DNA of 64,000 nucleotides from an uncultured Pseudanabaenaceae cyanobacterium (GTDB lineage: Bacteria > Cyanobacteriota > Cyanobacteriia > PCC-9006 > JAAUQQ01): the NCBI GenBank assembly GCA_938017515.1, contig CALIJJ010000060.1, forward strand, positions 18,633 to 82,632, read 5' to 3'. Positions 347-64,000 of the stretch are shown piece after piece. Each line of letters begins with the position of its first letter. Position 1 is the first letter of the stretch. A model generated the notes under the pieces. The model was given only the letters and a program-made list of their open reading frames with translations, was not told where the DNA came from and did not search any database. A program made the position numbers and the translations under genes.

Positions 347-3337
347 ATGGTGCGTCTAAAAGATTCCGTCGATACCCTTGTCAGCCTGGGGCTACCTGCC
401 TCGGGGGCAGGGGTGACGCTTCATTTCTTGTTGGGGGGACAGGTTGGACCGGCGGTGGTTTCGGGGATTACGACGGTGGGGGTGGCAGTGCTGACCCTGG
501 GCCGTCGCTTTGGCAAGCGGGTTTGGGCCAGGCTGGGCGATCGCGTCGATGAGCAAGCCGACAGTTTCGCGGACTGGCTGTTTGACCAGAGCAAACGCTG
601 GGGCAAGCGGACCTGGTGGATGCTCTCGGGCAACTTCCGCGAGAAATACAATCGCAGCTTGATCTATCGCTACCGCGACTACCAAACCCAGGGACTCACG
701 ACCCGAGGCCCCTTTGCCCTCGATTTGGAGAAGCTTTTTGTTCCCCTACGCCTGCGGCCCGAGAGCATTGGACAAATTTCAGGGGATTTGGTCGGTCGCC
801 CTGATGCTGGGGGCAGCTGGAATATTTGGCAGTTTCTGGTTGCCCTCAAAACCCAGAGTGCCTTCGATCGCCTGGTGATTCTCGGCGGTCCGGGCTCCGG
901 TAAAACGACGTTGCTGGAGCATGTGGCCCTGATCTTCGCCAAGGGCACCCACAAACGCTATTCTCGCCAGCTCCAGAGCTACGTACCGGTGCTGATCTGT
1001 TTGCGGGAAGTGCGAGATTTGATCACGGCGGATAAACCGGCTTCCCTACAGTCGTTGATTGAGCAACAGCTCCAGATTGATGGCATTACGCCACCCCCCA
1101 ACTGGTTTCAGGAAATGCTCCAGCAGGGCAAGTGCCTGATCATGATCGATGGACTGGATGAGGTCTCCAGCCTGAAGCAGCGCCGTAAGGTGAGCCAGTG
1201 GGTCACACAACAAATGCGGCTCCACCGTGAGAATCCGTTTATTATTACCTCCCGCCCGTTTGGCTATCGCGATGCACCGCTAGAGGGGGCGACAACCCTA
1301 GATATCAAGCCGTTTAACCTGTCCCAGATGCAGCAGTTTATCCGCAGTTGGTATCTGCAAACGGAAACGGTGCGCCATCTGGGCAAGGCCGATCGTGGCG
1401 TGAAGAAAACAGCCCAAACCCAGTCCGAAGATCTCATCCGCCGCATCCAAAATAATCCGTCCCTGGCAGCCATGGCGCTGAATCCGCTGCTGCTGACGAT
1501 GATTGCCACGGTTCACGCCTATCGAGGCGCTTTGCCGGGAAAACGGGTGGAGCTGTATAGCGAAATTTGTGATGTGCTGTTGGGCCGTCGCCAGGATATG
1601 AAGGGGATTCCCGATATTCTGACGGCGGATCAGAAAAAGAAAGTTCTCCAAACGTTGGCCTTCAAGTTAATGAAGCGGCGCACCCGCACGTTTCGGCTGT
1701 TTGCAGGCAAGGTGTTGATTGAGAAACAGTTGGCTGAGGTGGCCAAGGGCGAGATTTCCGCGGAAGAATTCATCCAGCACATTGAGCAAACCAGTGGTCT
1801 CTTGGTAGAGCGCCATCCCGGTGTGTATGAATTTGCCCATAAGAGTTTGCAGGAGTATCTGGCGGCGGTGCAGGTGCGCGTGCTGAACCGGGAGTATGAG
1901 CTGACGCGCAATATTGATGACCCATGGTGGGAGGAAACGATTCGACTCTATGCGGCCCAAAATGATTCCAGCAATTTGATTTGGGCGGCACTCCAGCAGA
2001 ATTCGGTCAAAGCCCTGTCCGTGGCCTATGACTGTTTGGAGGAAGCGGAAAGTGTCAGCAAGGACGTACGCAATGATCTGGAAGGACGCCTCGGTGCGGG
2101 GCTCGAATCATCGAAGCCAGAGATCTTTAAGTTGGCAGCGGAGGTAAAGCTAGAGCGGCGGCTCAAGCGCTTGCTGCGTTTGGATGAGAAGACGGACATT
2201 GATTTGACCTATATCTCCTGTGCGGAGTACCAGCTCTTTCTCGATGAGTTGGCCGAGGAGGCCAAAACAGGTGCGTTTCCGAACCAGCAGTTTCGCCAGC
2301 CGGACCACTGGAAGGAGCACCGCTTTCCCCATGGGTCTGCCAAGGCGGCGATCGCTGGTCTCCGAGCCAGTGATGCCCAGGCCTTTTGTGATTGGCTCAC
2401 CCAGCGGATCAATAGCCTGGGCTCGATCTACCTGGAAGCAGGGGTGACGGTTGTTGCGGGTCCCGTCAGAGTCCGTCTACCGTCTGCCCAGGAGTTGCGA
2501 GATCATCCGGTTTCATCGCCCCATGCCGACAAGCTCAGCAGTTGGTACAACAATTCTTCTGGCGCAACCAGGACGGTTGATCTCACCAGGACTGGTGATC
2601 GGATGGCTGTGGAACTGATGGTTGAGCAGCCACCTGCCATTCGAGTCCCGGGAGCAACGGAAGAGGACGAAGGAGGCCCAGATGAGACGCGCTTTGGTCG
2701 CAAGTCCAAACGACATTCTCCCTTGGCGGCCCAGCTTATTGAGCAGATCGTCCAGGATACGAGCCTAATTTTTGACCCCATCTTGCGTCATGTGCTGACG
2801 CTGAATAATGTTCTCATTTACGATTCTGTCGATGATGTTTTGTCCCAGGCATTGGATGTGCAGAAGGACCCCTTGCGAACCCTAGAGCGGGATACAGCCC
2901 TGAGCAATGTGCGAGGACTGGCGCTTTCGGGCCGCGATGGAGCGGAGCTGAGCCGCGATCGTGACCTCATCCTGCGTTTAGCGGAGGAGTGGGGCAAAGA
3001 GGTGGAGCAAAAGGCGATCGCTGCCCTTAACCGAAATCCTAAGTTGCATCAAAAACTATCGGGGAATAAGCCCCTGCTTCCTGCTCCAGAAATTTTAATG
3101 GTCTGTGCGTTCTGGCGCATGCTGGCAGAATTCTATGACACTCTGTCGAAGAAGCGGCGGTTGGTGCGCCAGAATGCGATTATTCCAGAGGACTGTAAGC
3201 GTTGGCGGCGTCAGTATCTCGACCACTGCGAGGATGTGCTGCGATTTTATGTGTTTTTGGCGTTGAAGGACGAGCGCCGCTTGGGTCGGGCGGAGGCTTG
3301 GGAGAGCTTGCGGATTGTGCGCGCCACTCGCTCCTAG
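347..3337 (+). CDS. NACHT-family STAND NTPase (bacterial NLR-like) with hydrophobic N-terminus and FGE-sulfatase-like fragment
   Basis: 996 aa ORF. Walker A GGPGSGKTTLLEH (nt 884-907), Walker B CLIMIDGLDEV, and the FIITSRPFGY motif typical of NACHT. Residues 12-52 are hydrophobic. Residues 621-720 (YQLFLDE, AQAFCDWL, VRLPSAQEL) resemble the N-terminal half of the FGE-sulfatase fold. Confidence 0.85.
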   Translation: MVRLKDSVDTLVSLGLPASGAGVTLHFLLGGQVGPAVVSGITTVGVAVLTLGRRFGKRVWARLGDRVDEQADSFADWLFDQSKRWGKRTWWMLSGNFREKYNRSLIYRYRDYQTQGLTTRGPFALDLEKLFVPLRLRPESIGQISGDLVGRPDAGGSWNIWQFLVALKTQSAFDRLVILGGPGSGKTTLLEHVALIFAKGTHKRYSRQLQSYVPVLICLREVRDLITADKPASLQSLIEQQLQIDGITPPPNWFQEMLQQGKCLIMIDGLDEVSSLKQRRKVSQWVTQQMRLHRENPFIITSRPFGYRDAPLEGATTLDIKPFNLSQMQQFIRSWYLQTETVRHLGKADRGVKKTAQTQSEDLIRRIQNNPSLAAMALNPLLLTMIATVHAYRGALPGKRVELYSEICDVLLGRRQDMKGIPDILTADQKKKVLQTLAFKLMKRRTRTFRLFAGKVLIEKQLAEVAKGEISAEEFIQHIEQTSGLLVERHPGVYEFAHKSLQEYLAAVQVRVLNREYELTRNIDDPWWEETIRLYAAQNDSSNLIWAALQQNSVKALSVAYDCLEEAESVSKDVRNDLEGRLGAGLESSKPEIFKLAAEVKLERRLKRLLRLDEKTDIDLTYISCAEYQLFLDELAEEAKTGAFPNQQFRQPDHWKEHRFPHGSAKAAIAGLRASDAQAFCDWLTQRINSLGSIYLEAGVTVVAGPVRVRLPSAQELRDHPVSSPHADKLSSWYNNSSGATRTVDLTRTGDRMAVELMVEQPPAIRVPGATEEDEGGPDETRFGRKSKRHSPLAAQLIEQIVQDTSLIFDPILRHVLTLNNVLIYDSVDDVLSQALDVQKDPLRTLERDTALSNVRGLALSGRDGAELSRDRDLILRLAEEWGKEVEQKAIAALNRNPKLHQKLSGNKPLLPAPEILMVCAFWRMLAEFYDTLSKKRRLVRQNAIIPEDCKRWRRQYLDHCEDVLRFYVFLALKDERRLGRAEAWESLRIVRATRS

Positions 3338-6868: not shown

Positions 6869-9800
6869 TCAGCGCTCCTCCAGGAGCCGGAGCAAAATCT
6901 CATACTGAAAGTCATTGATAAGGCGGTTGAGGCTTTCCCGAAGGCTGCTCTGATCGCTGGGAAGGTCTTCTAGGAGTACCAAGAGGCGATCCTGATCGGC
7001 GCCCAGCGCCGCTTGTTGCAGGGCGTGACACCAGTCCTGGGGCAAGGGGGTAAAGTTGGCCGGGCTCAAACCCATTTGTTGCTTCGGTTGACTCGTGTTG
7101 TGGCCAGACGTCCGGCTCCCATCCTGAGCCTCGTGTGACGGTTGCGCCTGGCCATTGTGCTGGCTCTGCTCGTCATAGATGAACTGAATATCCAGATGCT
7201 TGATCAACTTCGTGATCACCTCATTCTCTCGATAAGGCTTGGGGAGGAAGTCATCACATCCCACGATATTGGCATGGGTTTGATCCTCTTGAAAGGCATT
7301 GGCACTCAAAGTAATGATAATCGGCCAGAGATCGCGGGCTCGGATTTGGCGCATGACTTCCCAGCCGTCCATCTTGGGCATATTCAAGTCCATCCAAATT
7401 AAATCCGGTTCCTGCTGACAGGTTTTCTCCAAGGCCTCTTTGCCGTCCCGGGCTTCTTCGATGTTGGTCAGACCAATGGCTTTTAGGAATAGGACTAGGG
7501 ATTCACGACTGTCTTGATGATCGTCGACCACGAGTATTTTGGGCTGGGGTTGGTCAGGCATCATGCCCAAGACCCTTTGGTTTTTCACAGACTGAGGCTG
7601 CTGCATCGTTGTGGCATCTACCGTGCCTGCTTGAATGGTTACGGTAAAGGTGGACCCGCGTCCCAATTCACTGCTGACCAGCAAATGGCCATCCATAATC
7701 TGAGCAAATTGACGACTGATGGGGAGTCCGAGGCCCGTCCCCTGGGAGAACTTATGACCATTCCGGGCTTGTTCAAAGGCCTGAAAAATTTGCTCCAACT
7801 CTGTTGGAGCAATGCCGACACCGGTGTCAATCACCTGAAACTGTAGATGTCTGATCTCTGTGTTTCCTAAGCGTTCATCGGCATGTGGGGAGGGGAGAAC
7901 GTGAGCCTTGAGGGTCACCGAGCCGGTTTGGGTAAATTTGATAGCATTACCGACCAGGTTGAGCAGAATTTGGCGCAGCTTACGTTCATCTGTATAGATG
8001 TATTCCGGTAGCTCGGGCTGCATTTCATAGGTATAAGATAGGCCCTTATTTTGAGCCTTGAGCTGCAACATGCTGTGTAAACTATCCAGCAGTGCATGCA
8101 AATTAAAGGCCGAAGCATTGAGTTGTGCTTTTCCGACCTCGAGCTTTGAAAATTCGAGCACGTCGTTGATTAAGTCCAGAAGATGCTCACCGCTCTCACT
8201 AATGGTATTCAGTTGCTCGCGCTGTGTTTCGGAAAAGTTGGGTTGTCGTTGCAAGAGTTGGCTGAATCCTAGGATGGCGTTGAGCGGGGTACGTAATTCG
8301 TGGCTCATATGGGCCAAAAATTCGCTCTTGCCCTGGTTGGCCCCTTCGGCGGCTTCCTTGGCTTGTTGGAGTTCGATGTTGAGTTGTTCTAGGCTTTCGG
8401 TGGCTTGCTTTCGCTCTGTGATGTCATGGAACGTACTGAGAATGCCGACCACTTGCCCCTGGGGGTTATGCAATGGCACCTTGTTGGTTTCCAGCCAGGC
8501 TTTCTGCCCATCTGCCTGTTGTTGCGCCTCGACAATGCCGAGTTCGGCTTGATTGGACTCCATGACACGGCGATCGCATTCCTGAAAGAAATCGGCTTCC
8601 TCAGTTCTCCATGCCAGATCATAGTCAGTTTTGCCGTAGATCTGAGCCGGGGAATCTAGCCCAGCTAATTCCGCAAATTTCTGGTTGCAGCCTAGATACA
8701 CGGAGTCACGTCGTTTCCAAAATATATATTGAGGTAGCGTATCGATGACGACCCGTAATCGATTTTCCGATTCTTGCAGCTCACTTGTTCGTGCAGCAAC
8801 TAATTGTTCTAAGTCTGCTTTAATCCGTTCTAAAGTGTTCTCGGTCTCGAGCTGCTGGTGGATTTCCTGAGCCGTTTGCAGGGGCGGGGTCGTTCCGTTG
8901 GAGCCGGTATTTGCACTAAGGGGTGGCAAAACTGCATCCCTGGCCTGAGAGGATTGAGGATCGGCCAAGTGCATCACAGCCTTCTGTAATTGCTGGAGCT
9001 GAGCCATGGTTTGTTGATGCCGTTCCGAGGCGAGCTGCAAAGAGAGCAGGTTGCCCACGGACGTCATAAAACAGCGCTCTAACTCGCTCCATTTTTGGTC
9101 CGGATTACTATGTTCGCAGCGAATCATGCCGATCATTTGCCCTTCTAGATGGCAGCTGGTCCCTAGCATGGAGGTTCTCTGGGAAGTCAGCTCAGATTTC
9201 TGCTCGGTTGCGTTTCCCCGCAGATGCGACTGGGTGACTGAATTAAAACGGTGGGCGCAGGTGAGTTTGGGGGAGTGATTGGGGAAGGCTGGGTCGGAAT
9301 CACCCTCGAGTAACCAGATGCTTACCTCCTCTCCTCCGAGAACTTTAGCGCAGACCTCTGCAATGGTCTGGAGTTTCTCATCTAGATTACCCACTTCCCC
9401 AGCGGCCTGGGAGAGTTGATTAAATGCGGTGGTCTGTTGGTGGAGAGCGAGGCTGTGATAACTCAGATCCGCTTCTATTTGGCGAATCTTTTCCTGCAGC
9501 ACGTCTTGCTGGGACTTCCCTGCTGCGATCTGGCGTTGGAGAGTCTGGTCATGCAGGAGACTCGCTAACTGGCAGCATAGGAGCTGAATAATGGCCTGCT
9601 GAGGGATCGTAAACGCATTGACTAAGGTTCGATGCTCTAGATAGAGCACACCATAGCTTTGCCTTTGATGCATGAGCGGTAAGCAAAAAAGGCTTTTTGG
9701 AGGATGCTTGTCGGGGAAATACTGGGCAATATCTGGATAGGCGTCTAGCTCCCCATCGCTCGCACGGTTGCTCGCACGGTTACTCGCACTGTCGCTTGCA

Positions 9801-22008: not shown

Positions 22009-24078
<2,070 letters not shown>

Positions 24079-52924: not shown

Positions 52925-53989
52925 TCAGTTTTGTTCGTTGGTCGGCCCAAGCTGGGCTTGGACGAGGGCTGGGAATCCTGGATATTCGCTAAGGGGTTTG
53001 CCTAGTCGGAGATTCAGGTGCGGACATTGGGCACGAAGCTGATGTTCTAGCTCCTGAAGGCGTTGGGCGATCGCATCGGTGAGTCCCCCCTCGAACAGAA
53101 AGTAGGGCAATACCTCAATGGTGAGATGGGTCGCCCTGTTTGTCCCCGTCCCAGGAATAGGGTGAGCTTGACCCGGCTGTCCCGGTACATTTTTCTCGGG
53201 TTGAATCGCTGTATTGTTTTGCCCCTGCTCCGCGAGTTGCTGCTGTACGACACTTTGGATTTGCTGAGACAAGCTTTCTGGCTTGACCCAGTAGGCCACA
53301 GGCAGACCCAGGCGATCGCCCAGGGCCTGAATATGCTCACTTGCCCCCGTTCGACGACTGCCGTGGGCCATCAAAATTTGAAATGTTTTGCTGCTGCTGG
53401 AAGTCGTCAAGACTGATGTTGAGCCCAGGAGTGTGGCCATAGCCTGGTGTTGGCTGCCGAGGTAGGGCAATACGTCTATCTCAACTCCCTGATAGCGAGC
53501 GTCTTCGGCAAGCGCGCGCTTGGCTTGTTCCACTTCCGCGGGAATGTCCTCCATGACATGGACACCCGGTAGCAAGAACAGGGGCAGAATCTTGAGGCAG
53601 CTCCCCGCGCTCAACTTGCAGTGGTGGACGAAGTCTTGAATCTGTTGGTGGAGTGCTGTGGGTCCTAGCTCCAAAACTGCTGTGCCGATCTGGAGCGCTG
53701 TGCTTTGGTTTTGGGGACGCAGGATGGCAAGTTGACCTTCCGATTTAGAGGTACTTTGCAGGGAAGGACTGGGCCGTGAAGGACTGCTCAGGTCTGAGTC
53801 CAGGGGAGGATGGGCATTGCCCGAACCAGAGGACGTCTGAAGATGATGAACCAGGGCCTGAGCCCCCTGCTCGGAGCGTGGGTCACGACTGCCATGGGTG
53901 ACCAGCAAATAAGCCGTGGAAGACTTTTCATCCTTGGCTGGGGAAGACATTGCTTGGGAAGGTCTCGTTTGGGAAGGCATCGCACACAT
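52925..53989 (-). CDS. cbiX: sirohydrochlorin chelatase CbiX (two-domain form)
   Basis: 354 aa. The two CbiX halves each have the (L/M)xHGSR motif (LLVTHGSRDPRSEQGAQAL and ILMAHGSRRTGASEHIQAL). A Ser/Pro-rich insert lies in the first half. Confidence 0.85.
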   Translation of the reverse strand: MCAMPSQTRPSQAMSSPAKDEKSSTAYLLVTHGSRDPRSEQGAQALVHHLQTSSGSGNAHPPLDSDLSSPSRPSPSLQSTSKSEGQLAILRPQNQSTALQIGTAVLELGPTALHQQIQDFVHHCKLSAGSCLKILPLFLLPGVHVMEDIPAEVEQAKRALAEDARYQGVEIDVLPYLGSQHQAMATLLGSTSVLTTSSSSKTFQILMAHGSRRTGASEHIQALGDRLGLPVAYWVKPESLSQQIQSVVQQQLAEQGQNNTAIQPEKNVPGQPGQAHPIPGTGTNRATHLTIEVLPYFLFEGGLTDAIAQRLQELEHQLRAQCPHLNLRLGKPLSEYPGFPALVQAQLGPTNEQN

Positions 53990-54112
53990 TGCTCCTAAAA
54001 CACCTCAGATTTCATCAGGCCAAGCCCACAGGGTAAACGATGGGACGCATCCACGCTGCTCGGGCGCCTATGAGTGTTGGACTTTGAGCCAGAAACGCCT
54101 GTGATGGACGAA

Positions 54113-54310
54113 CGAAAAAAATGGCCTTCCCGCACTTAGGAAAGGCCATTGTTCATGCATCAATCTTGGTAGGCACCCTTCTTTCACTGGAAGGTGCGAA
54201 GGTCCGGTGGCATGCAGTGGGAGCTACTGTCGTCGGACCGCCGCTTTTACCGAATCAGCCAAGAGAAGAAATCTTCTGTGGCCCCTGATGATCGGTGGTG
54301 TCACTGAGAC
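54113..54310 (-). ncRNA. candidate structured RNA / riboswitch-like leader with its own intrinsic terminator, upstream of cbiX
   Basis: On the minus strand there are three consecutive hairpins. The first has CAG..CUG, GCCA..UGGC and AGAAGA..UCUUCU pairings. The second is GGUCCG..CGGACC enclosing CAGU..ACUG. The third is GCACCUU..AAGGGUGC. A terminator follows (AUGGCCUU(U)CC..GGAAGGCCAU plus U7, plus-strand 54115-54149). No ORF. Class unconfirmed. Confidence 0.35.
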
Positions 54311-54757
54311 AAAACTAAGACATTACAGCCATATGGCCCAATGCTTTCTAGAGGACTTTATTGAAAAAAGATAGAACAGCTTCCTGTATGAAGCTTCTCT
54401 GCCGATGATGGCTGATGTTCTCCGTATAATCTCGGGTACGCAATCCCAGGTAAATACGGAGATGTACTGAGCCTCGGTTCACTAGAATAAACCAGCGCGG
54501 AGTCATGTTGAATCTTAAGAAAAGCCTATGATTATCAAGGGTATAGAGAAATTTACGCTTTTCTTTTAATCCTTTTCCCAACGTTCTATGGATTGGTGTT
54601 TCGCTGTGTCAGCCGGGCAGATTCACAACAGTCGGTCTCACCCGTGATTGCGTCAAATGAGCGGTGAAAAGGCTGTTGTGTTGAACGCTGTCTCCCTCCA
54701 TTCTGTTTCACCCGAACCACCCAGTCTCCAGTCCTTTGCCAGGCCGGTTCTCAAACC

Positions 54758-56740
54758 CTAATCCCGATGGAACCCTAAATATCCCCGGGGTGTGATGAGC
54801 CAGTTCTGATGATTGAGCGTGCTGGCGTTGCCAATGAGAACCGTGGTCAACATATCGATGGTTGAGTCGAGTAGGGCTCCCAGTGTTGTGATCGTAATTT
54901 GTTCGGTCTCTCGATAGGCGGATTGAACCAGTGCAACCGGTGTCTCGGGGTTGCGGTGTTCAAGGAAAATGCTTTGGGCTGTTTCGATTTGTGTGAGACG
55001 CGTTTTGGACTTGGGATTGTAGAGTGCCACCACAAAATCTGCTTGGGCAGCCGCTCGCAGCCGCTTTTCGATCATCTCCCAGGGCGTTAGCAGATCGCTG
55101 AGGCTGATGGCACAAAAGTCATGCATCAGCGGTGTACCCACTCGGGCGGCGGCGGCTTGCAGCGCTGTGATACCTGGATAGACTTGGACGCTGGGGCTGG
55201 CCCCATCCCAACCGGCTTGGCTGAGGCTTTCCATCACGAGTCCCGCCATGCCATAGATGCCGCTGTCGCCGGAGGAGATCACCGCGACAGAGAGTCCCCA
55301 ATGGGCCAGTGCGATGGCCCGTTCTGCCCGGGCGCGTTCCTGGGTGATGGGCAGGGCTTCGACGATTTGGCCGGGGCGTAGTAAGGGACGAATCAGATCG
55401 ATGTAGAGGGAGTAGCCAATTACCGCATCCACTGCTGCGATCGCCCCCTTGGCTGCGGGAGTCATCTGATTCAAAGCGCCGGGGCCAATTCCCACTAGGG
55501 CAAGATGCCCTGGGCGTCCCGTGTATTCCGTTTGAGCTTGGGCGATGGCAACGGTCACAGCCCCCGGCTCACCCTCCAGCCGGTGAATTTGTTTTGTGAC
55601 CTGTAGTTTCGGGGCCTGTAATTGGGGAGATTCTGATGGGTCTGATGTTGCTGCTGCGATCGCAGCGGCTTCCGAAACACTGGGGGTTCCAACCTCAGCC
55701 AACACGACGTCGGAGGGCGTGGGCACAGGAATGTCGCGCAGTGTTTCTGCCGTAAAGCATCGTAGGGGCCAGTCTCGGGCTTCGCATAGGTCTAGTAGCC
55801 CCGCTTCATCGGCTTTGAGGTCGAGGGAGGCAATGCCTGCGATCGCTCCCTCGGCGAAGTGGCTGGCTTGGCAGGTGCGGGCGATCGCGGTTTCAATCAA
55901 GTGCCGGGAGCTGCCTCGCTCACAGCCGATCCCCACCCACAGCACCCGAGGATGCCACTGGACCTTGGCACTGGTGGCTTCAAACTTGCGCTGGGTTGCA
56001 CTAATCCAGATCCGGGCTTGGGGGTCTGGTGCCTCAGTGGGCTGTTCCGTTTGTTCTTTTGATGAGTCCTCTGATGGCTTTTGGGTTGCCCCGGCTGTTG
56101 ACGCTTCCGAGAAGCCGAACTGAAACGGATGACCTGCGGGGAGATGGGCTTGCCAGAGGGGCGATCCGGCATCTTGGAGGACTTGGACTGGCTTGCCCTG
56201 GGCAATGGTGGCGCTGACGCTGGTCCAGTTGCCGCTGCCCCGATGCCAGCCAAAGGGGTTGCCCAGAATGTCGATGCCGGGCAGATCTTGCTGAGCCGAT
56301 GCGCCGGTAATGATGGGGGTTGCCCCGAGTTGTGTGGCGACTAAGCGGGCGAGCTGATCCGCACCGCCCTGGTGACCGCCACAAAGGCTGATGACATAGT
56401 CTCCAGATGCGTCAACAACAATGATGGCTGGGTCTGTGGCCTTGTCTTGCAGCAGGGGAGCGATGAGGCGAGTGGTTGCGCCCGCCGCGAGGCAAAAGAT
56501 AAAGGCGCGATGGTGGGGCCAGAGGGTGGCGAGATGATCGCTCAGTGAGCCCGCATAGGTTTGGATGTGGCTATCGGCGGCACCATCGCTGGAGGGATTG
56601 GAACGATCGTGGTGCTGGAGAGACGGCGGAACCCAAACGGGAACTGCAGATTGAATGAGGGGATGTAGGGTTTTGAGGGCCTGGGGAGTGGTGGCGATCG
56701 CCGCCATGGGCCAGCCAGTTTTAGACGCAAAATCGAGCAC
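54758..56740 (-). CDS. cobJ: bifunctional cobalt-precorrin-5A hydrolase (CbiG) / precorrin-3B C17-methyltransferase (CobJ/CbiH)
   Basis: 660 aa. The N-terminal two thirds are CbiG-like (ATTRLIAPLLQDKATDPAIIVVD ... IASLDLKADEAGL). The C-terminal third is a tetrapyrrole methylase (HLALVGIGPGALNQMTPAA ... VAVISSGDSGIYGMAGLVME). Confidence 0.88.
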   Translation of the reverse strand: MLDFASKTGWPMAAIATTPQALKTLHPLIQSAVPVWVPPSLQHHDRSNPSSDGAADSHIQTYAGSLSDHLATLWPHHRAFIFCLAAGATTRLIAPLLQDKATDPAIIVVDASGDYVISLCGGHQGGADQLARLVATQLGATPIITGASAQQDLPGIDILGNPFGWHRGSGNWTSVSATIAQGKPVQVLQDAGSPLWQAHLPAGHPFQFGFSEASTAGATQKPSEDSSKEQTEQPTEAPDPQARIWISATQRKFEATSAKVQWHPRVLWVGIGCERGSSRHLIETAIARTCQASHFAEGAIAGIASLDLKADEAGLLDLCEARDWPLRCFTAETLRDIPVPTPSDVVLAEVGTPSVSEAAAIAAATSDPSESPQLQAPKLQVTKQIHRLEGEPGAVTVAIAQAQTEYTGRPGHLALVGIGPGALNQMTPAAKGAIAAVDAVIGYSLYIDLIRPLLRPGQIVEALPITQERARAERAIALAHWGLSVAVISSGDSGIYGMAGLVMESLSQAGWDGASPSVQVYPGITALQAAAARVGTPLMHDFCAISLSDLLTPWEMIEKRLRAAAQADFVVALYNPKSKTRLTQIETAQSIFLEHRNPETPVALVQSAYRETEQITITTLGALLDSTIDMLTTVLIGNASTLNHQNWLITPRGYLGFHRD

Positions 56741-56992
56741 AGAGGTCTGTTAAAAGGAGGACTTCGTCATTATCGCAGTGCAGCTTAGAGCGATCGCCTG
56801 ATTACTTCAAATTGCAACTTATTTCGGCATCTCTATATAGAATGAGGTTTAGCCCGTAAGGCTTCCAAGCCCATTCCATCGCGAGATTGGGCGAGATTGT
56901 CTAGCGCTTTACCCCGGTCTGTTTCAGTACAAAGGCTGTTCATTATAAGAGCGGTTAATTGTAGTTTTGTCATCAACCTATATGGATATTGC

Positions 56993-57796
56993 ATGACTGT
57001 TATCACTGCGGTTCAAAAAGGCAACGAAATTTCCATTGCTTGTGATACCCAGACGACTAGCAGTGACCTGCGCTATAAGGTCACGGCGGCTTATCGGGCC
57101 AATTCCAATAAGCTTCTGACCTATGGTGACAATATTCTGGGCCATTCCGGTAGCAATGCCATCAAGCAAATTCTGGAAGCCCTGTTTCGGGAAGATAGCG
57201 ATGCCCCTGCGTTGGCCTCTCGCGACGAAATTTTTCAATGGCTCCTCGCGATTCAGCCTGAACTTAAGGAGACCTATCTGATCAAGCCCTCAGGGGATAG
57301 CAAAAATCAGCCCGTGGAATCCAATCAGGTCAGCATTGCCCTCGTGGTTAATCCCCATGGCATCTTTAGCCTGAACGGCTACCGGGAGGTCAATGAGTTT
57401 CTCAAATTCTGGGCGATTGGTAGCGGCCAGCATTTTGCGCTGGGGGCGATGCAGGCCGTGTACGATTTGGACTTCTCTGCCGCTCAGATTGCAGAGGCAG
57501 GCGTTTTGGCTGCGACGGAGTTTTGCCCCTACTCGGCTAAGCCGGTTCAGGTGAAAACGATTCAACGGGCTCAGATTTCGGAGGAACGTTCAGGGTCCAA
57601 GGCGGTCGCAAAAAAAGCGGCATCTCCCCAAAAAACAGCAGCTAAAAAAGTGACGGCTAAAAAAGCAACGGCTAAAAAGGCTGCATCCCAAGCAACGCCA
57701 GCCAAAAAAGCAACGGCTAAAAAAGCAGCGGCCAAAAAAACAACGACCAAAAAAACGGCTGCGAAGCAGACCATCCGTAAGGGAGCGATCCGCTAG
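56993..57796 (+). CDS. HslV/proteasome-beta-like Ntn (Thr) peptidase domain fused to a histone-H1-like Lys/Ala-rich tail
   Basis: From ATG 56993. MTVITAVQKGNEISIACDTQTT aligns by eye with the HslV N-terminus (Thr after Met). NSNKLLTYGDNILGHSGS matches the Lys33 region, and WAIGSGQHFALGAM matches the GSG motif. The C-terminal roughly 65 aa are AKKA/TAKK repeats. Confidence 0.7.
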   Translation: MTVITAVQKGNEISIACDTQTTSSDLRYKVTAAYRANSNKLLTYGDNILGHSGSNAIKQILEALFREDSDAPALASRDEIFQWLLAIQPELKETYLIKPSGDSKNQPVESNQVSIALVVNPHGIFSLNGYREVNEFLKFWAIGSGQHFALGAMQAVYDLDFSAAQIAEAGVLAATEFCPYSAKPVQVKTIQRAQISEERSGSKAVAKKAASPQKTAAKKVTAKKATAKKAASQATPAKKATAKKAAAKKTTTKKTAAKQTIRKGAIR

Positions 57797-57859: not shown

Positions 57860-59596
57860 CTACAAACGTTGGATGGAGCGGTGGGGATGAAGCGGTGGGG
57901 AGATCGGGGTATGAAGGTCCAGCGATCGCACCTCGCTCCCCTCAATCCTTCGAATCCGGTGATTATTGGTATCTGCAATCAACAAGCTGTCTTCCCAGTG
58001 CCCCATCCCCGACGGTTCCGCGAACATGGCCGCTGAATCTAGGCCATCCCGGTATCCGGCTTGTCCTGTGCCATGGTGGGTTTGGCAATCGCCTGTGTTG
58101 GGATTGACGCGCTTGATGCGGTGGTTGTAAGTGTCGGCGACCCAGAGAAATCCTTGGTGGTAGCTCAAGCCGAGACAGTGTTGGAGCCGTACGTCTTCGC
58201 CGCTTCCGTCGCGATCGCCCCAGCCAAACAACATGCCGCTGCCACACACCGTACGCACTTGGGGATTTTTGCCGAGTTCGACCGCGCCGAGCCCAACTGC
58301 GCGAATGGAGCTGGTCTCTGCATCCGCCACAAATAGCTCGTTCCCATCTGTCGCTAACCCACTGGGTTGGGCGAATGCTGCCCTGAGCAGTGCGCCGTCG
58401 GCCCAGCCTTCCGCACCGCTGCCTGCGTAGGTTTCGCATTGGCCACTCTCCAACGCCAGTCGCCAAATTTGATGGGTTCCGGCCATGGCAATGAACAGGT
58501 GACGGTCCACCAAGGCCAAATCCCAGGGAGAATTCAGCGCCACGGCTTTGGCTTGGCCGCCGTGGGGGTGGAGAAACCGACTCTGCTGTCCGGTACCTGC
58601 GATTGTCCTGACCTGTGGCCCTTGGGCTGACAGCTGTCCTGGGGGCTCTTGCGACTCTGCTTGCATTTCTGTTTGCCAATTCAAAACGCGTACGACATGA
58701 TTGCCGGAATCAGCGATGTAAAGCTGCTGGGTGGCATCGTCCCAGGCCATTCCCTGGGGATAGCAAAATTGAGCGCGATGGCCGGGACCATCCGTCCAAC
58801 CTGATGCCCCCGTTCCGATGCTGTCGATCCATTGGCCGGTCAGGGTTGTGATGACGATGCGGTGATTGCTGGAGTCCGCGATGAACAGATAGGGCTGTTC
58901 TGCATGGTTCGGTTGAGCCACGCAGATGTTCCCAGGGAAAGATAGTTCCCTGGGAGAGGAGGCGCTAAGGCCACTATTGCTGCTCCGTTCGCAGTGCCGA
59001 GTGGGTTCTGGCAGCCTACTTATCTGGCTTGTGTTGGTCGGGTTTGTGCTGGTCGGGTTTGTGATGGCTGGGCTTGTATTGCTCGGGGTGGTGCCGGACC
59101 CACCCGCATTTTGACTGAGTAATTTGCTGATCAGCGCCGAGATTTTTTCCCCACGCCCTTCGCCGACGAATTGGCCTGCGATGTAGCCCCTGGCGTCAAT
59201 GACAACGACGGTTGGCCAGGCTCGAATTGCGTACTGTTGCCAGACCTGGAAATCGCGATCGCACAAAACCGGATGTCGGATGCCGTAGCGCCGCAGGGCC
59301 TGTTGCACCTGGGCTGGCTCCGCTTCATGGTCAAACTTTGCGGAGTGAATGCCGAGGAGCGTGATGCGATCGCCATAGGTTGCTTCCAGTGCCGCTAGCT
59401 CCGGCAACATATGGAGGCAGTTGATGCAGCCATAGGTCCAAAAATCGAGCACCACAATTCCTCCCCGCAATTCAGCCAAAGAAAGACCCCCCACAGAGCA
59501 CTCCTCAGACCGCTGTGAGGGGATTGCTGTAGAGGGTTCTTCTCCAGATGTCATGAGCCACTGAGCATCACTGGGAAATTCAGGGGCACGGACCAT
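57860..59596 (-). CDS. thioredoxin-fold (TlpA/AhpC-TSA-like) plus NHL-repeat beta-propeller protein (NHLRC2-like)
   Basis: 578 aa. VVLDFWTYGCINCLHMLPEL (CxxC), a Thr/Ser/Pro/Asn linker, then repeated NHL-type units (YIADSGNHVVRV, FVADAETSSIRAV, WVADTYNHRIKRV, LIADTNNHRIRRI). Confidence 0.85.
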   Translation of the reverse strand: MVRAPEFPSDAQWLMTSGEEPSTAIPSQRSEECSVGGLSLAELRGGIVVLDFWTYGCINCLHMLPELAALEATYGDRITLLGIHSAKFDHEAEPAQVQQALRRYGIRHPVLCDRDFQVWQQYAIRAWPTVVVIDARGYIAGQFVGEGRGEKISALISKLLSQNAGGSGTTPSNTSPAITNPTSTNPTNTSQISRLPEPTRHCERSSNSGLSASSPRELSFPGNICVAQPNHAEQPYLFIADSSNHRIVITTLTGQWIDSIGTGASGWTDGPGHRAQFCYPQGMAWDDATQQLYIADSGNHVVRVLNWQTEMQAESQEPPGQLSAQGPQVRTIAGTGQQSRFLHPHGGQAKAVALNSPWDLALVDRHLFIAMAGTHQIWRLALESGQCETYAGSGAEGWADGALLRAAFAQPSGLATDGNELFVADAETSSIRAVGLGAVELGKNPQVRTVCGSGMLFGWGDRDGSGEDVRLQHCLGLSYHQGFLWVADTYNHRIKRVNPNTGDCQTHHGTGQAGYRDGLDSAAMFAEPSGMGHWEDSLLIADTNNHRIRRIEGSEVRSLDLHTPISPPLHPHRSIQRL

Positions 59597-59617: not shown

Positions 59618-62600
59618 TTAGGAACCGAAGATGTCAGCAGCCTTGGCGGTGTCGCGCTTTTCCTGAATGCCGCTGCTGCCAAAGATATCGCGGGCATTTT
59701 CCTTATTGGGGATATCAGGATCGAGGGTCTTTAGCTCACGCTCGAAGCGCTCAAAGGCCTTGTCGAAGTTGACCTCCGGTTCCTCGGTGGTGGATTTTGG
59801 GGTGGAGGATTTCTTGGTAGAGGGCTTTTGCTGAGCGGTTTTTTCTGACTGCTTCGTTGACGATGACTGAGATGCCGTTTCCGATTTCTCTGCTGTGTCC
59901 TTGGTCGTTATGTCTGAAGACTTGGGTTTGCTCTTTTGAGTTGTGCTGTCTTTGCGTCCCAAGAAATCAAAGAAAGAGGATTGCTTTTTCTCTGAAACCT
60001 GTTTCTGTCCCGTGGTTGTCTTAGGGGTAGCTGTGGCAGATGTTTTGCTGCTATCGGCAGCTTTTGCTGTTGGCAAGGGCTGGGTTGTGTCAGCCTTCTT
60101 CGTTGCTTCAGTCTGCTTAGAAGAATTTGCCGTTGCTTTAGCCTTCGGCTGAGTCTCAGTCTTGGGCTTCGCCGCTGGTGGGATGGCTGTTTTGTTCTCA
60201 GGTAACTTGCTCTCAGGTAACTTGCTCTCGGGGACCTTGCTCCGCTTGCCAAAGAAATCAAAGGCAGAATTCTGCTTTGGTTTTGCTTCTGGATTGGTTT
60301 TGGCTGCAGGACTCGTTTTTGGGGCTGTGTCTATAGGTTTCTTCTCGGTTTTGGCCGCTGGAGCAGTGGTTTTGGTTGCTGGAGCAGTGGTTTTGGGAGC
60401 TGTTGTTGCTTTGGGGGCGGGAGCACTAGGCACGACAGGCTTAGGTGTGGGAGCTGTCGCTGCTTTTGGAGCCGGGGGAGCGACTTTGGGGGCCGTTACG
60501 GGCTTTGGAGCCTGAGGGGCTTTTGGTTGAACTGCTGCTGGGGCAGGGCTCTCTGGTGCCTTGGCCGCTGGCTTTGCGGGGGCTTGCTGCCAGAAGGGTT
60601 TTGGACTGCTGCTCGGCTTTGGAGCGGCTTTGGGAGTGACGGGTAAGGGGGCTGCAGGCTTAGGGGCGAGCCGTTGGGGCGGTGCTTTTTGGGGGCTAGG
60701 CTGCACCGGCTTTGCCATGGGAACCGCAGGCGAGGCCTGAGGCTTGGCTGCTGGCGTGATGCCTGTGGCCGGAGCTGGTTTGTTCGGAAGCGCAGACTTC
60801 TTCAGATCTTTAGATACAGGGGGCTTCAGGTCGCTCGGTGCCTTCCCACTATTCGGAGTTTTGACTTCTTTAGGTGTGTTTGCTTTGGTAGGTGTGTTTG
60901 CCTTGGGCTGTTGGAAGCGTTGCCAGAATGGCTTGCTGTCCGACTTGGCTTGAGGTGCTGGGTTGGTTTTCTTTGTTTCGGGTTTCACGGCCTCTGATTT
61001 CACCTGGGCTGCTTCTGGAGCCTTGGTTGATGCTTGAGGCGCTGGCGTCACATTGTTGGGTTTGGCAGGGGTTGGTTTGGCAGGGGTTGGTTTGGCAGGG
61101 GCTTTCGTCACCGCAGAAACGGGCTTCTCAGCTTTTTCGGCCTTGGGTGCTGTCAGAGATTGAGGCGCTTCCATCGGCTTGGATGGCGGAGTCACGATGG
61201 GCTTATTGGTTTCGTCTGACTGGAATCGTTGCCAAAACGGTTTCTTCTCTGGCGTTGCGGGCTTCTCCGCTTTTTGAGTCCTTGGCTGGGTCGTCGGTTG
61301 AGTGGCAGTTGTGGGTGGGCTGATAGGCTTTTTCGCCGTTGGCTTTGCTGCCTCGACTTTCTTGGGCTCGATTTTTTGAGCCTCAGGCTTCTTAATCTCA
61401 GGCTTTGTAACGACCGGAGCTTTGACCGTGGGTGGCTTCGCTGCGGGTTGCTTGGTTTCGGGCTTGATGACGGTCGGCTTCACCGTTGGTGTTGGAACGG
61501 AGCGAGGTTGGGCCGCTGGTGCGATCGCGGGAGTGCTTGGGAGAGGTGCCTTTTCGGATTTTGGTGCCGTCAAATCCGTTGGAACGCCTTGGGGTTTTGA
61601 GGGAGGCGTGACAATGGGCTTGTTCTCGGTTGATTGGAATCGCTTCCAGAATGGCTGTTTCTCAGCTTTCTGATTCTCAGCTTTCTGCTCCGTCTTAGGC
61701 TCGACTTTCGATGCAGAGGGGGATTGCTTTTCTAAAGCCTTATCGTTTGTGAGTTTTGCCGGTGCCTTGGTTGCTGGTTTGGCGTCCGCTGGCTTGGGGG
61801 GGATTGGCTTGGCTTCGGTTTTCTTCGCTGGAGGTGTGATCGCAGGCGCCACCGAAGGTTCTGGAACAGGAGGTATAACGACGGGTTTGGGTGCAGCCGC
61901 TGGTTTCTTCTCAGCCTGAGTTACTTTGCCGGGTTCGACCTGCTTGCTAGCCCCTTTCTGAATATCAGGTTTTGGCGCAATGGCCTTGGGCGCAGTGGGT
62001 TTGGGAGCTACTGGCTTGGGCGCTACTGGCTTGGGCGCAGTTGCTTTTTGGCTGGGGGTGACTGGCTTTGTTTCCCTAGTTTTTGTTTCGCCAGTTTTTG
62101 CTTTCTCAGATTTTGATTCGCCAGTTTTTGTTTCGCCGGTCTTCGCTTTGTTGGCAGGGGAGACCTTTGGCGTTGCAGCAGGAGTCGTCTCGGACTGCTT
62201 GCCGAAACGTTTCCAGAACGGAGTTTTCTCCGACTTCGTTTCTGCTTTTACTGCTTCTTTTTTCGTGGGGGTTGGTTTGGGAGTGGTTGGCTGGGTCTCG
62301 ATCTTCTTCGCTGGAGGTGCGATCGCAGGCGCCACCGAAGGTGCTGGAACAGGAGGAATGACGACGGGTTTGGGTGCAACCGCTGGTTTCTTCTCAGCCT
62401 GAGTTGCTTTGCCGGGGTCGACCTGCTTGCTAGCCCCTTTCTGAATATCAGGTTTTGGCGCAATGGCCTTGGGCGCAGTGGGCTTAGGTGCTACTGGCTT
62501 AGGTGCTACTGGCTTAGGTGCTACTGGCTCAGGTGCAGTCGCTTTTTGGCTGGGGGTGACTGGCTTTGTTGCACTAGTTTTTGTTTCGCCAGTTTTTGCT

Positions 62601-64000
62601 TTCTCAGATTTTGTTTCGCCAGTTTTTGTTTCGTCGGTCTTCGCTTTGTTGGTAGGGGAGACCTTTGGAGCTTCAGCGGGAGTGGCCTCGGTTTTCTTGC
62701 CGAAGCGTTTCCAGAACGGAGTCGTCTCTGTTTGGGCGTCTTCCTTCTTCGTTGATTTGGGTTGGGTGGGGTTTACTGCGGGCTTAGCCTCGGTATCCCT
62801 TGAAGTCTTGCTTTCCGCTTTTGGGCTTGCCTGTTGCTGTGATGCTGAAGGCTTCGATTCTGAAGGCTTTTTCGCGTCCTGAATTTTTGACGTATCGAGC
62901 GGTGGGGATTCTAGCTTGGGAGCAACCTTGGGTTTTGGAGCGGAAGGTGCCGGAGAAATCTTTGGGGCGATCGGTGCAGGAATCGGAACGGGGACGATGG
63001 GAGGAATGGCTTTACTGCCGGATGCATCGTTCTGCGGCTGAGCTTCGGATGGCTGGACTTCGGATGGCTGAGCTTCGGATGGCTTAGACGCTGGCTTTAC
63101 GCCTTGACTCGGCGCAATTCTTTCGGCAGGTGCCTTATCTGCTGGGAGCTTGGGTGCTTCGGGGGCTGGTTCAGGTTCTGCGTAAATGGGAGGTACGTAG
63201 TCTGGATCAACGATGCCGAGGGCATTCTTGAGGGAAATCTGGTTGCGTGATAGCCGTGCCAGAGGCTCCTGACCGTCGGGCTGATAGTCGATGAGGCTCA
63301 CGCCTGTGTTGAAGACATTGTTAACAACGTCGCCATTTTCATCGAGAAATTCTAGCTTCAGCCAGTTCTTTCCCTTTTTGAATCCCTTTAGGTAGATGGG
63401 CTGCCAGCGATCGAGCAAAAAGCTCTCCCCATTGATCGTGCAGCGAATCCGCCAATCCGCCACGTCTTCCTCATCCTTGGCCACAAAGTGGAGAGGGGCA
63501 TTCGTCAGATAGTAATCCAGCAGAATGGGCTCTGCACCGTAGTGACCCCGAGGGCGGCTGTAGGTAATCAGCGGCAGGTTGGGATCGGGGATGTTGGTCT
63601 GGGTTTGGGTGAAAACGTGAAACGTTTGCTGAACGTAGGCACCTTCATTTTTGAAGCTTTCATCCCAAGGGCGCGCTGCAAAGGCCCGAAGGGTATGGCT
63701 ACCGGGTTCTAAGTCTTCGATGATGAGGGGCTGGCTCAGGTCGTAGAGCTCACTGTGAAACTTGTCATCGATAAACACATCGATGTGGGGGCCAAGGCCC
63801 AGTCGTTCGTCTTTAAACAGCTTCAAGTCTGAGAGTTTGAGGCGAACTTCAACACGGTTATCATCCAGCACTGTGTTGGCTTTGGGGCTAATGACCTGAA
63901 GCTGGGGCTGGTTGTCTGCGAGCGATCGCCGTAACTCTTGAATGACGGCTGGGGTCGAGACCTCTGAAATACTGCTACGCCGACTCTCCGGTTGAAGAGC
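59618..64000 (-). CDS. giant Pro/Lys/Ala/Thr-rich repeat protein with folded N-terminal domain (5-prime end outside window)
   Basis: The track ORF starts at GTG 63871, but the frame stays open to base 64000, so the N-terminus is probably beyond the window. About 270 aa of ordinary-composition sequence (63100-63900) is followed by about 1150 aa of low-complexity repeats. These contain six PFW(K/Q)(R/Q) motifs (PFW(K/Q)RF in five) and two FDF(F/L)G motifs. Confidence 0.8.
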   Translation of the reverse strand, partial: ALQPESRRSSISEVSTPAVIQELRRSLADNQPQLQVISPKANTVLDDNRVEVRLKLSDLKLFKDERLGLGPHIDVFIDDKFHSELYDLSQPLIIEDLEPGSHTLRAFAARPWDESFKNEGAYVQQTFHVFTQTQTNIPDPNLPLITYSRPRGHYGAEPILLDYYLTNAPLHFVAKDEEDVADWRIRCTINGESFLLDRWQPIYLKGFKKGKNWLKLEFLDENGDVVNNVFNTGVSLIDYQPDGQEPLARLSRNQISLKNALGIVDPDYVPPIYAEPEPAPEAPKLPADKAPAERIAPSQGVKPASKPSEAQPSEVQPSEAQPQNDASGSKAIPPIVPVPIPAPIAPKISPAPSAPKPKVAPKLESPPLDTSKIQDAKKPSESKPSASQQQASPKAESKTSRDTEAKPAVNPTQPKSTKKEDAQTETTPFWKRFGKKTEATPAEAPKVSPTNKAKTDETKTGETKSEKAKTGETKTSATKPVTPSQKATAPEPVAPKPVAPKPVAPKPTAPKAIAPKPDIQKGASKQVDPGKATQAEKKPAVAPKPVVIPPVPAPSVAPAIAPPAKKIETQPTTPKPTPTKKEAVKAETKSEKTPFWKRFGKQSETTPAATPKVSPANKAKTGETKTGESKSEKAKTGETKTRETKPVTPSQKATAPKPVAPKPVAPKPTAPKAIAPKPDIQKGASKQVEPGKVTQAEKKPAAAPKPVVIPPVPEPSVAPAITPPAKKTEAKPIPPKPADAKPATKAPAKLTNDKALEKQSPSASKVEPKTEQKAENQKAEKQPFWKRFQSTENKPIVTPPSKPQGVPTDLTAPKSEKAPLPSTPAIAPAAQPRSVPTPTVKPTVIKPETKQPAAKPPTVKAPVVTKPEIKKPEAQKIEPKKVEAAKPTAKKPISPPTTATQPTTQPRTQKAEKPATPEKKPFWQRFQSDETNKPIVTPPSKPMEAPQSLTAPKAEKAEKPVSAVTKAPAKPTPAKPTPAKPNNVTPAPQASTKAPEAAQVKSEAVKPETKKTNPAPQAKSDSKPFWQRFQQPKANTPTKANTPKEVKTPNSGKAPSDLKPPVSKDLKKSALPNKPAPATGITPAAKPQASPAVPMAKPVQPSPQKAPPQRLAPKPAAPLPVTPKAAPKPSSSPKPFWQQAPAKPAAKAPESPAPAAVQPKAPQAPKPVTAPKVAPPAPKAATAPTPKPVVPSAPAPKATTAPKTTAPATKTTAPAAKTEKKPIDTAPKTSPAAKTNPEAKPKQNSAFDFFGKRSKVPESKLPESKLPENKTAIPPAAKPKTETQPKAKATANSSKQTEATKKADTTQPLPTAKAADSSKTSATATPKTTTGQKQVSEKKQSSFFDFLGRKDSTTQKSKPKSSDITTKDTAEKSETASQSSSTKQSEKTAQQKPSTKKSSTPKSTTEEPEVNFDKAFERFERELKTLDPDIPNKENARDIFGSSGIQEKRDTAKAADIFGS
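61821..62723. repeat. near-identical tandem duplication of about 0.5 kb inside the giant gene
   Basis: 61821-62225 and 62304-62723 align almost base for base, at offset 483 nt. The offset becomes 498 nt after an extra 15-nt GGCTTAGGTGCTACT-type unit in the second copy. Confidence 0.85.

Follow-up and report, generated by a model that had tools for sequence, protein, structure and literature searches.

A giant proline- and lysine-rich protein of an uncultured cyanobacterium, the longest member found of a conserved family with a spaced aromatic-arginine tail motif

Three groups of described proteins come closest to the product of the gene examined here. TonB and LpoB are extracytoplasmic proteins held by an N-terminal membrane anchor, with long proline-rich (X-Pro)n spacers that include Lys-Pro and Glu-Pro runs and let the protein extend across a compartment. 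In CsoS2 and EPYC1, short motifs are evenly spaced along a disordered chain, their copy number varies between species, the chain has grown by duplication of modules, and aromatic and arginine residues are the likely contact points. Surface lipoproteins and adhesins with immunoglobulin (Ig)/FN3 domains (SGBP-B, 7BIZ, intimin D00-D0 and Vibrio cholerae RbmA) have two consecutive beta-sandwiches, are extracytoplasmic and in several cases are lipid anchored. We analysed a 64,000-nucleotide stretch of DNA (the window) from an uncultured Pseudanabaenaceae cyanobacterium, in which a giant open reading frame (ORF) at positions 59618 to 64000 of the minus strand encodes a protein with likenesses to all three groups. 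This protein was the longest and most expanded member found in our analysis of a cyanobacterial family defined by a conserved N-terminal head. In architecture it varies on envelope tethers that are already known, and we give an even chance to the reading that it is an exported, membrane-anchored sticker-and-spacer tether which has been expanded in the window by module duplication.

There were also differences from the described systems. The window protein had no TonB_C domain (PF03544), and its PDB matches to TonB involved only the Pro-rich spacer, with E values of 7 to 9. The predicted anchor of the family is a cleavable signal or lipoprotein peptide and not a TonB transmembrane helix, no ExbB/ExbD-like gene was a recurrent neighbour of the family gene, and the folded domain is N-terminal, whereas that of TonB is C-terminal; the functional elements appear as repeated motifs within the spacer. 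CsoS2 and EPYC1 bind Rubisco in the cytoplasm or stroma, and their genes accompany those of carboxysomes or pyrenoids, whereas members of this family are predicted to be exported and are probably lipid anchored. The motif sequence of the family is unrelated to theirs and its spacing, at ~100 to 190 residues, is far sparser. No CsoS2 homology was detected in the window protein in Pfam, NCBIfam and PDB sequence searches, and the neighbours of the family gene were psaAB, a thioredoxin-NHL gene and cobalamin genes, with no CsoS2-type carboxysome context encountered. With the Ig/FN3 surface proteins, the family head shared the fold class alone and not membership of a sequence family.

The features of the giant gene are given below; the nucleotide coordinates of the eight motifs were verified by translation.

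59618..64000, minus strand: giant ORF, 1460 codons plus a stop codon at 59618-59620, truncated at its 5' end by the window edge.
63191..63973, minus strand (residues ~10-270): conserved head of normal composition, predicted to be folded from homologues, AlphaFold2 (AF2) and Foldseek.
59621..63166, minus strand: Pro/Lys/Ala/Thr tail of 1182 residues, net charge +107, disordered as judged by composition.
62699..62719, minus strand (residues 428-434): motif 1, PFWKRFG.
62201..62221, minus strand (residues 594-600): motif 2, PFWKRFG.
61634..61654, minus strand (residues 783-789): motif 3, PFWKRFQ.
61220..61240, minus strand (residues 921-927): motif 4, PFWQRFQ.
60911..60931, minus strand (residues 1024-1030): motif 5, PFWQRFQ.
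60584..60598, minus strand (residues 1135-1139): motif 6, degenerate, PFWQQ.
60242..60265, minus strand (residues 1246-1253): motif 7, AFDFFGKR, followed by (KLPE)2.
59951..59974, minus strand (residues 1343-1350): motif 8, FFDFLGRK.
61821..62722, minus strand: tandem duplication of 483 bp, 1.8 copies with 89% matches, spanning motif modules 1 and 2.
59621..59767, minus strand: C-terminal module FDKAFERFERELKTL...DIFGSSG...DIFGS-COOH, common to the closest complete relative (L004).

Frame 1 of this region was free of stop codons for 1,460 codons as far as the window edge, as a preliminary description made from the sequence alone had stated. That description had also discounted the GTG at 63871 as the true start. 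The GTG was rejected here as well, because orthologues matched from the first codon of the window and continued upstream. The first window codons, ALQPESRRS, paired with VLQPESRRS, which forms residues 81 to 89 of an orthologue (P0001) that is 78% identical, and upstream of the equivalent position the orthologues had another 50 to 90 residues comprising a signal peptide and lipobox. On the basis of this alignment and of the orthologue N-termini, ~85 codons beyond 64000 are therefore missing. A scan of metagenomes for the missing 5' end yielded a best match of 61% identity, and no relative closer than 78% was recovered. The described succession of a domain of about 270 residues with normal composition and a long tail almost devoid of hydrophobic residues was borne out: the tail contained 219 Pro, 196 Lys, 180 Ala, 128 Thr and 91 Ser residues but only 53 Leu, Ile, Met and Cys residues together.

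The six PFW motifs and two C-terminal FDF motifs of the preliminary description were found exactly as listed, with distances of 97 to 189 residues between successive motifs. All six Trp residues of the tail, and all aromatic residues before residue 1412, fell inside the motif islands. The six occurrences of PFW compared with an expectation of 0.02, and none of 20,000 composition-preserving shuffles reached six. Among six-frame ORFs of at least 100 residues in the window, the pattern [FW][FW]x[KR]F was confined to the giant gene. Only two recurrent motif classes, PFW(K/Q)RF and FDF(F/L)G, were found in the tail, in the forms (K/T)PFW(K/Q)RF(G/Q) or FDF(F/L)G(K/R). On the Wimley-White interfacial scale the motifs had favourable energies, between about -1 and -2.6 kcal/mol per 7-mer where the tail as a whole averaged +3.3, and by this measure they would partition into a membrane interface. 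The only seven-residue windows of negative energy were the motif islands and one C-terminal IFGSSGI. The (A/V)PKP and KTGET runs that had been reported between the motifs were real and corresponded to 15-nt tandem repeats. The 483-bp duplication shows how the window tail grew, namely by duplication of modules consisting of a motif plus its spacer. Of modules 1 to 8, only modules 1 and 2 lay in the 483-bp tandem repeat, and modules 3 to 8 were not recent copies.

The tails of the orthologues were Pro-rich, fast-evolving, mostly acidic and variable in length, from <50 to >1,000 residues. A logo drawn from 229 distinct instances of the motif read K-P-[KR]-F-G-G-[FY]-F-[NDQ]-R-[FR]-[RK]-R-P, with the consensus KPxFGGFFNRFRRP. 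Positions outside the search pattern were also conserved, namely the G-G that precedes the core, the N at +2 and the R-R-P that follows, and LPPTLPEI(I/V) often followed 10 to 15 residues past the motif. In 161 unique complete tails there were 188 instances of the motif compared with 0.9 expected from shuffles, a 200-fold enrichment, and 97 of these tails had at least one copy. The motif, and not composition alone, was thus conserved in orthologues. With a stricter pattern applied to 2.9 Mb of cyanobacterial loci, 106 instances lay in family ORFs and eight lay outside, all of the latter in spurious-looking ORFs. Copies per tail ranged from 0 to 8 and, in answer to a question raised in the preliminary description, motif number increased with length (Spearman rho = 0.65, P = 5e-21, 161 tails). 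The mean number of copies was 0.04 in tails of <150 residues, 0.74 at 150 to 250 residues, 1.7 at 250 to 400 residues and 2.8 at 400 to 700 residues; on representatives of 50%-identity clusters, rho was 0.47.

The window form P-F-W-(K/Q)-R-F retains the order of the family motif (aromatic, aromatic, x, Arg, aromatic). Six of the eight islands fitted the loose family pattern [FWY][FW]x[RK][FR], the other two being PFWQQ and FFDFLGRK, and motif 7 with its (KLPE)2 resembled the family arrangement FFNR...LPPTLPEI. L004, the nearest complete relative (68% head identity), carried one GGFFSRFGQK and five KPFWQR(F/I)Q motifs. Its tail shared with the window tail both KPFWQRFQ and a C-terminal module, FDxAFxRFExxL ... 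D(I/V)FG ... DIFGS-COOH. The spacers of the two proteins had opposite charge, with a net charge of -85 for the acidic L004 tail and +107 for the basic window tail. As the motifs were kept while the spacers flipped charge, it is the motifs that are conserved, and the spacers can drift freely. FGGFF(N/D)RFKS was carried by two other giants with basic tails, L022 and L052, which are unrelated. At 1,182 residues, the window tail was the longest among the family tails compared; the next was that of L022 with 1,062 residues and the family median was 224 residues. The giant size is a lineage-specific expansion and not a property of the family.

Other short elements were conserved within particular lineages. 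Examples are F(Q/E)PQTELERRLG(M/I)PLK; K(F/Y)DYLK(Q/K)YL(N/D)K with a ...DELIPIGKL C-terminus; RIIQAP...IPSRF(L/F)(K/Q)K; and LPPTLPEI(I/V). Tails with such elements include those of L134, L142, L157 and L035, of L022 and L052, and of L107, L111 and L124. As several short conserved elements occurred in addition to FFNRF, the orthologue tail is a mosaic of motifs. In a second relative, from Synechococcales cyanobacterium RM1_1_8 (L003, 8001-9714), a +1 frameshift directly after the folded head split the orthologue; the shifted frame encoded a Pro-rich tail that contained LPFWKRLQQRF and led into an (AEQKA)n region. Either the sequence is in error at this point, or the orthologue is a real pseudogene or split gene.

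The family is defined by its head. A search with the window head retrieved 866 proteins at an E value of ≤1e-3 from a 90%-clustered database, with a best match at 1.7e-148 and 78% identity, and a Crocosphaera head used as query retrieved 1,375 proteins. In 50%-identity clusters there were 1,049 representatives, 418 of them with E values of ≤1e-30. Among the matches listed, all named sources were cyanobacteria, and the taxa included Nostocales, Oscillatoriales, Leptolyngbyales, Pleurocapsales, Chroococcidiopsidales, Thermosynechococcaceae, Spirulina, Chamaesiphon, Trichodesmium and Pseudanabaena. Head identity between orders was 50% to 60%, and the window head shared the 46 invariant columns of a 51-sequence alignment. 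The whole window protein had no match in Pfam or NCBIfam, and the head alone had no Pfam match even at an E value of ≤10. Orthologues scored below the curated Pfam cutoffs for the bacterial Ig-like domains Big_7 (20 to 23 bits versus 24.1) and DUF6130 (15 to 21 bits versus 23.7), with which the predicted head agrees in fold class. A family profile found no relative among PDB sequences, the only matches being TonB-type Pro-rich segments at nonsignificant E values of 1.5 to 9. The preliminary description had not recognised the family, which was fair given these results, and the N-terminal domain did not belong to a characterised family in the Pfam, NCBIfam and PDB searches. Database entries were labelled "hypothetical protein", in UniRef sometimes "FHA domain containing protein" and in one NCBI record "DUF6130 family protein"; nothing in the analysis supported the FHA label.

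Structure prediction indicated that the head is two Ig/FN3-like beta-sandwiches. An AF2 model based on 51 sequences left residues 140 to 181 unresolved. With 110 sequences and a full-length orthologue (P0063), the whole head was modelled as two beta-sandwich domains with predicted local distance difference test (pLDDT) values of 80 to 97, while the tail was without secondary structure at values of 46 to 60. Foldseek comparison of two models with the PDB gave generic matches to tandem FN3/Ig modules, which came from surface lipoproteins, adhesins and matrix proteins, among them the Fn3 module of CbhA (1.9e-9), a Bacteroides B12-binding lipoprotein (7BIZ), SGBP-B, RbmA and intimin D00-D0. The TM-scores were 0.1 to 0.36, the root mean square deviations over both domains 12 to 20 Å and the identities 10% to 14%. 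Given these low TM-scores, the predicted head agrees with Ig/FN3 proteins in fold class only.

Export was predicted from the orthologue N-termini, which had a positive n-region and a hydrophobic core. A lipobox Cys (LTSC, LASC, LVGC and similar) was present in 60 of 83 orthologue loci, and the orthologues without a lipobox, mostly from Leptolyngbyaceae, had signal peptides with AxA sites. The closest relatives read ...LIGVLA(L/V)GTVGCG, with GTVGC in the three closest. These N-termini indicate that the family is extracytoplasmic and usually lipid anchored. The preliminary description had proposed a multivalent short-linear-motif scaffold that binds a folded partner, a membrane surface or nucleic acid and is organised like CsoS2. 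The part concerning conserved motifs in a disordered spacer held up, but nucleic-acid binding was rejected on the evidence for export. A cytoplasmic CsoS2-type condensate is unlikely for the same reason, and kinship with CsoS2 gives way to a physical analogy at most.

Under the tether reading, a lipid anchor would hold the protein at a membrane on its periplasmic or thylakoid-lumen side. Each motif would be a weak and independent contact point, and the Pro-rich spacers would supply reach and flexibility only. Motif copy number would then set avidity and span, with eight motifs on one chain giving both avidity and a long reach. The motifs, which are short aromatic and cationic patches, could bind an anionic membrane interface, and their Lys and Arg residues would then strengthen the attraction to anionic lipids. 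They could also bind a conserved partner outside the cytoplasm; the data fit a receptor of protein or glycan nature as well as they fit a membrane.

The family gene had a recurrent genomic position. At 115 of 129 unique loci, psaA and then psaB lay on the opposite strand within 3.5 kb upstream of the family gene; duplicate loci had been removed and only loci with enough flanking sequence were counted. Measured between the psaA start and the point where the head match begins, the median distance was 768 nt. The pairing spanned Nostocales, Oscillatoriales, Leptolyngbyales, Pleurocapsales, Chroococcidiopsidales and Thermosynechococcaceae. As the 78%-identical relative (L164) had the same divergent psaA arrangement, at 864 nt, the same arrangement is expected just beyond position 64000 of the window. 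This ancient divergent pairing suggests that expression is coupled to photosystem I (PSI) and thylakoid biogenesis. One metagenome-assembled contig (CASBRD010000153.1, L100 and L101) carried two psaA/family-gene pairs in opposite orientation ~14 to 31 kb apart; either the PSI core locus has truly undergone an inverted duplication there or the assembly is at fault.

Several observations weigh against the tether reading or against parts of it. No psaAB pairing was found in the Crocosphaera/Cyanothece clade, diatom endosymbionts, Egbenema, Prochloron and a few other loci. The family gene was intact in three Rhopalodia spheroid-body endosymbiont genomes, and given this retention the psaAB link may be merely regulatory or historical. 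In the R. musculus endosymbiont (L084 and L085) the gene lay at 8001-9365; together with P0281 and P0283, these genes were intact and encoded 454 to 455 residues. No psaA or psaB remnant was found near the family gene in L084 and L085, the two loci examined. The R. gibberula endosymbiont is reported to have no functional PSI or photosystem II genes but to have kept its thylakoid membranes (PMC5638926). The AF2 model of P0063, which has a single motif, left the motif region unstructured (pLDDT 46 to 56) and not docked on the head. This outcome is weak evidence against binding of the motif to its own head, a possibility that was thus not supported, and is neutral with regard to a membrane. The family consensus FFNRFRR scored weaker than PFWKRF in our own sums on the Wimley-White interfacial scale, so that a protein or glycan partner may be the true target of the motif. 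In 64 of 161 tails, mostly short ones, there was no instance of the motif pattern, and the head must therefore function without it. Finally, the predicted localisation of family members comes from their sequences, and that of the window protein from its relatives, as its own N-terminus lies outside the window. With regard to compartment, the psaAB pairing points to the thylakoid, whereas retention in endosymbionts and the coil size speak for the envelope.

A doubtful but still serious alternative is that the protein spans the envelope much as TonB, Lpp or LpoB do, with its lipid anchor in the plasma (or outer) membrane. The Pro-rich tail would thread the thick cyanobacterial peptidoglycan, tail length would track envelope thickness, and the motifs would grip peptidoglycan, the polysaccharide attached to it or the outer membrane at its inner leaflet. 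Such a protein should have the signal peptide and lipobox seen in orthologues and could be kept by nonphotosynthetic endosymbionts, which still possess an envelope. Its (A/V)PKP and EP-rich runs recall the TonB spacer, the sole, albeit nonsignificant, type of PDB match, and its head has the fold class of SGBP-B, the B12-binding lipoprotein, intimin D00-D0 and RbmA. In addition, we estimated a radius of gyration of ~11 to 13 nm for a coil of 1,182 residues, which suits the periplasm better than a lumen of 5 to 10 nm. Nevertheless, Pfam and NCBIfam searches detected neither TonB_C nor any other known peptidoglycan- or outer-membrane-binding domain, and no ExbBD-type partner was present among the neighbours. 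The reversal of spacer charge between close relatives is hard to square with a fixed electrostatic match to the wall, and the very old divergent psaAB pairing is left without explanation.

The pairing is what an unlikely second alternative would explain, in which the protein is a thylakoid-lumen factor tied to PSI. Here, the lumenal PsaA/PsaB face, an electron donor or an intermediate of assembly would be bound by the head, the tail motifs would hold the protein on, or bridge, anionic lumenal leaflets, and the shared divergent promoter region would provide co-regulation with psaAB. Retention of an intact gene in Rhopalodia spheroid bodies, where that of R. gibberula is reported to lack functional PSI and photosystem II genes, speaks against such a role, with the caveat that pseudogenisation is slow in this lineage and that spheroid bodies keep thylakoids. 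The pairing was also lost at the Crocosphaera clade, Egbenema and Prochloron loci, and the coil is large for a narrow lumen. To our knowledge, PSI structures have not been reported to contain an unassigned Ig-like lipoprotein. On the other side, divergent adjacency to psaA-psaB at 115 of 129 loci included the closest relative, and very strong conservation of the head is expected for a conserved partner. Lipobox lipoproteins are known in the cyanobacterial lumen (Psb27, CyanoP and CyanoQ), and thylakoid lipids are rich in the anionic sulfoquinovosyldiacylglycerol and phosphatidylglycerol.

A more speculative and improbable view is that the protein forms a lipid-anchored "associative polymer brush", a structural component of the extracytoplasmic space that is co-expressed with PSI. 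Aromatic-arginine stickers would reversibly cross-link membranes or each other and so determine how the thylakoid lumen or periplasm is spaced or organised. Evolution would tune this through the length of the tail and the number of stickers, with the window protein as the extreme setting.

It is very improbable that the tail is functionless filler, a runaway low-complexity expansion in which the head does all the work and motifs persist through recent module duplication, because, while the 483-bp duplication, the many 15-nt repeats, the wide range of tail lengths, the 64 motif-free tails and the L003 frameshift that parts head from tail would all suit it, the motif has been conserved between orders, in flanks that are independent and at positions outside the search pattern, is 200-fold enriched over composition and is identical between the window and L004 despite reversal of spacer charge, and modules 3 to 8 lie outside the 483-bp tandem repeat and are not recent copies.

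The gene immediately downstream of the giant gene starts 21 nt past its stop codon.

57860..59596, minus strand: gene for a protein with a thioredoxin-like domain (WTYGCINC) and NHL repeats.

The product matched Pfam NHL at 5.7e-30 and AhpC-TSA and Thioredoxin_8 at ~1e-10; it has a CxxC followed by NHL repeats and fits the NHLRC2/SOQ1 lumenal-domain type. No terminator-like site was found between the two genes and, given the 21-nt gap, they are probably co-transcribed. At 37 of 120 unique loci a thioredoxin-NHL gene came after the family gene, and it was the latter's sole widely recurrent same-strand downstream neighbour. The beta-propeller of this protein was considered as a receptor for the motifs and set aside. 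The protein had neither a signal peptide nor a transmembrane segment and should therefore be cytoplasmic, and the gene was downstream in only 37 of the 120 loci.

Further genes of the window were recorded as side observations. Just downstream, at 52925-56740 on the minus strand, lay a cobalamin cluster with a CbiG-CobJ/CbiH fusion (660 residues) and a CbiX-like chelatase (354 residues). The plus-strand ORF at 56897-57796, with a probable start near 56993, encodes a product (MTVITAVQKGNEISIACDTQTT...) resembling N-terminal-nucleophile hydrolases of the HslV/proteasome-beta type (NCBIfam HslV, 3.6e-9, below cutoff). Its C terminus is a Lys/Ala-rich tail like those of histone H1 and Hc2 (Pfam HC2, 1e-7, below cutoff), and it is odd to find a tail of the DNA-binding type joined to a peptidase-like domain. 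The plus strand encodes, at 22048-24078, a phycobilisome core-membrane linker similar to ApcE that has only 676 residues and two stretches matched to the Pfam linker domain, and, at 347-3337, a 996-residue NACHT-domain NTPase. The window also encodes ATP synthase alpha, an NDH-1 subunit and CcsB, and together these genes establish it as cyanobacterial chromosome.

A literature search for the family (as a divergent psaAB neighbour, as a PSI lipoprotein and with guessed locus tags of model organisms) found no relevant paper. With no family model and no structure either, the family, its motif and its psaAB pairing appear to be undescribed. More than 1,000 sequence clusters, from Pseudanabaena to Nostocales, share the highly conserved and predicted exported head. 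The tails amount to a natural experiment in which a motif of 7 to 14 residues is kept at 0 to 8 copies while the spacers vary tenfold in length and flip charge, and a constant motif on changing spacers makes a motif-centred function directly testable. If the psaAB pairing is functional, the family would be a new extracytoplasmic player in thylakoid or PSI biogenesis; if it is not, the family would represent a new type of envelope tether in cyanobacteria.

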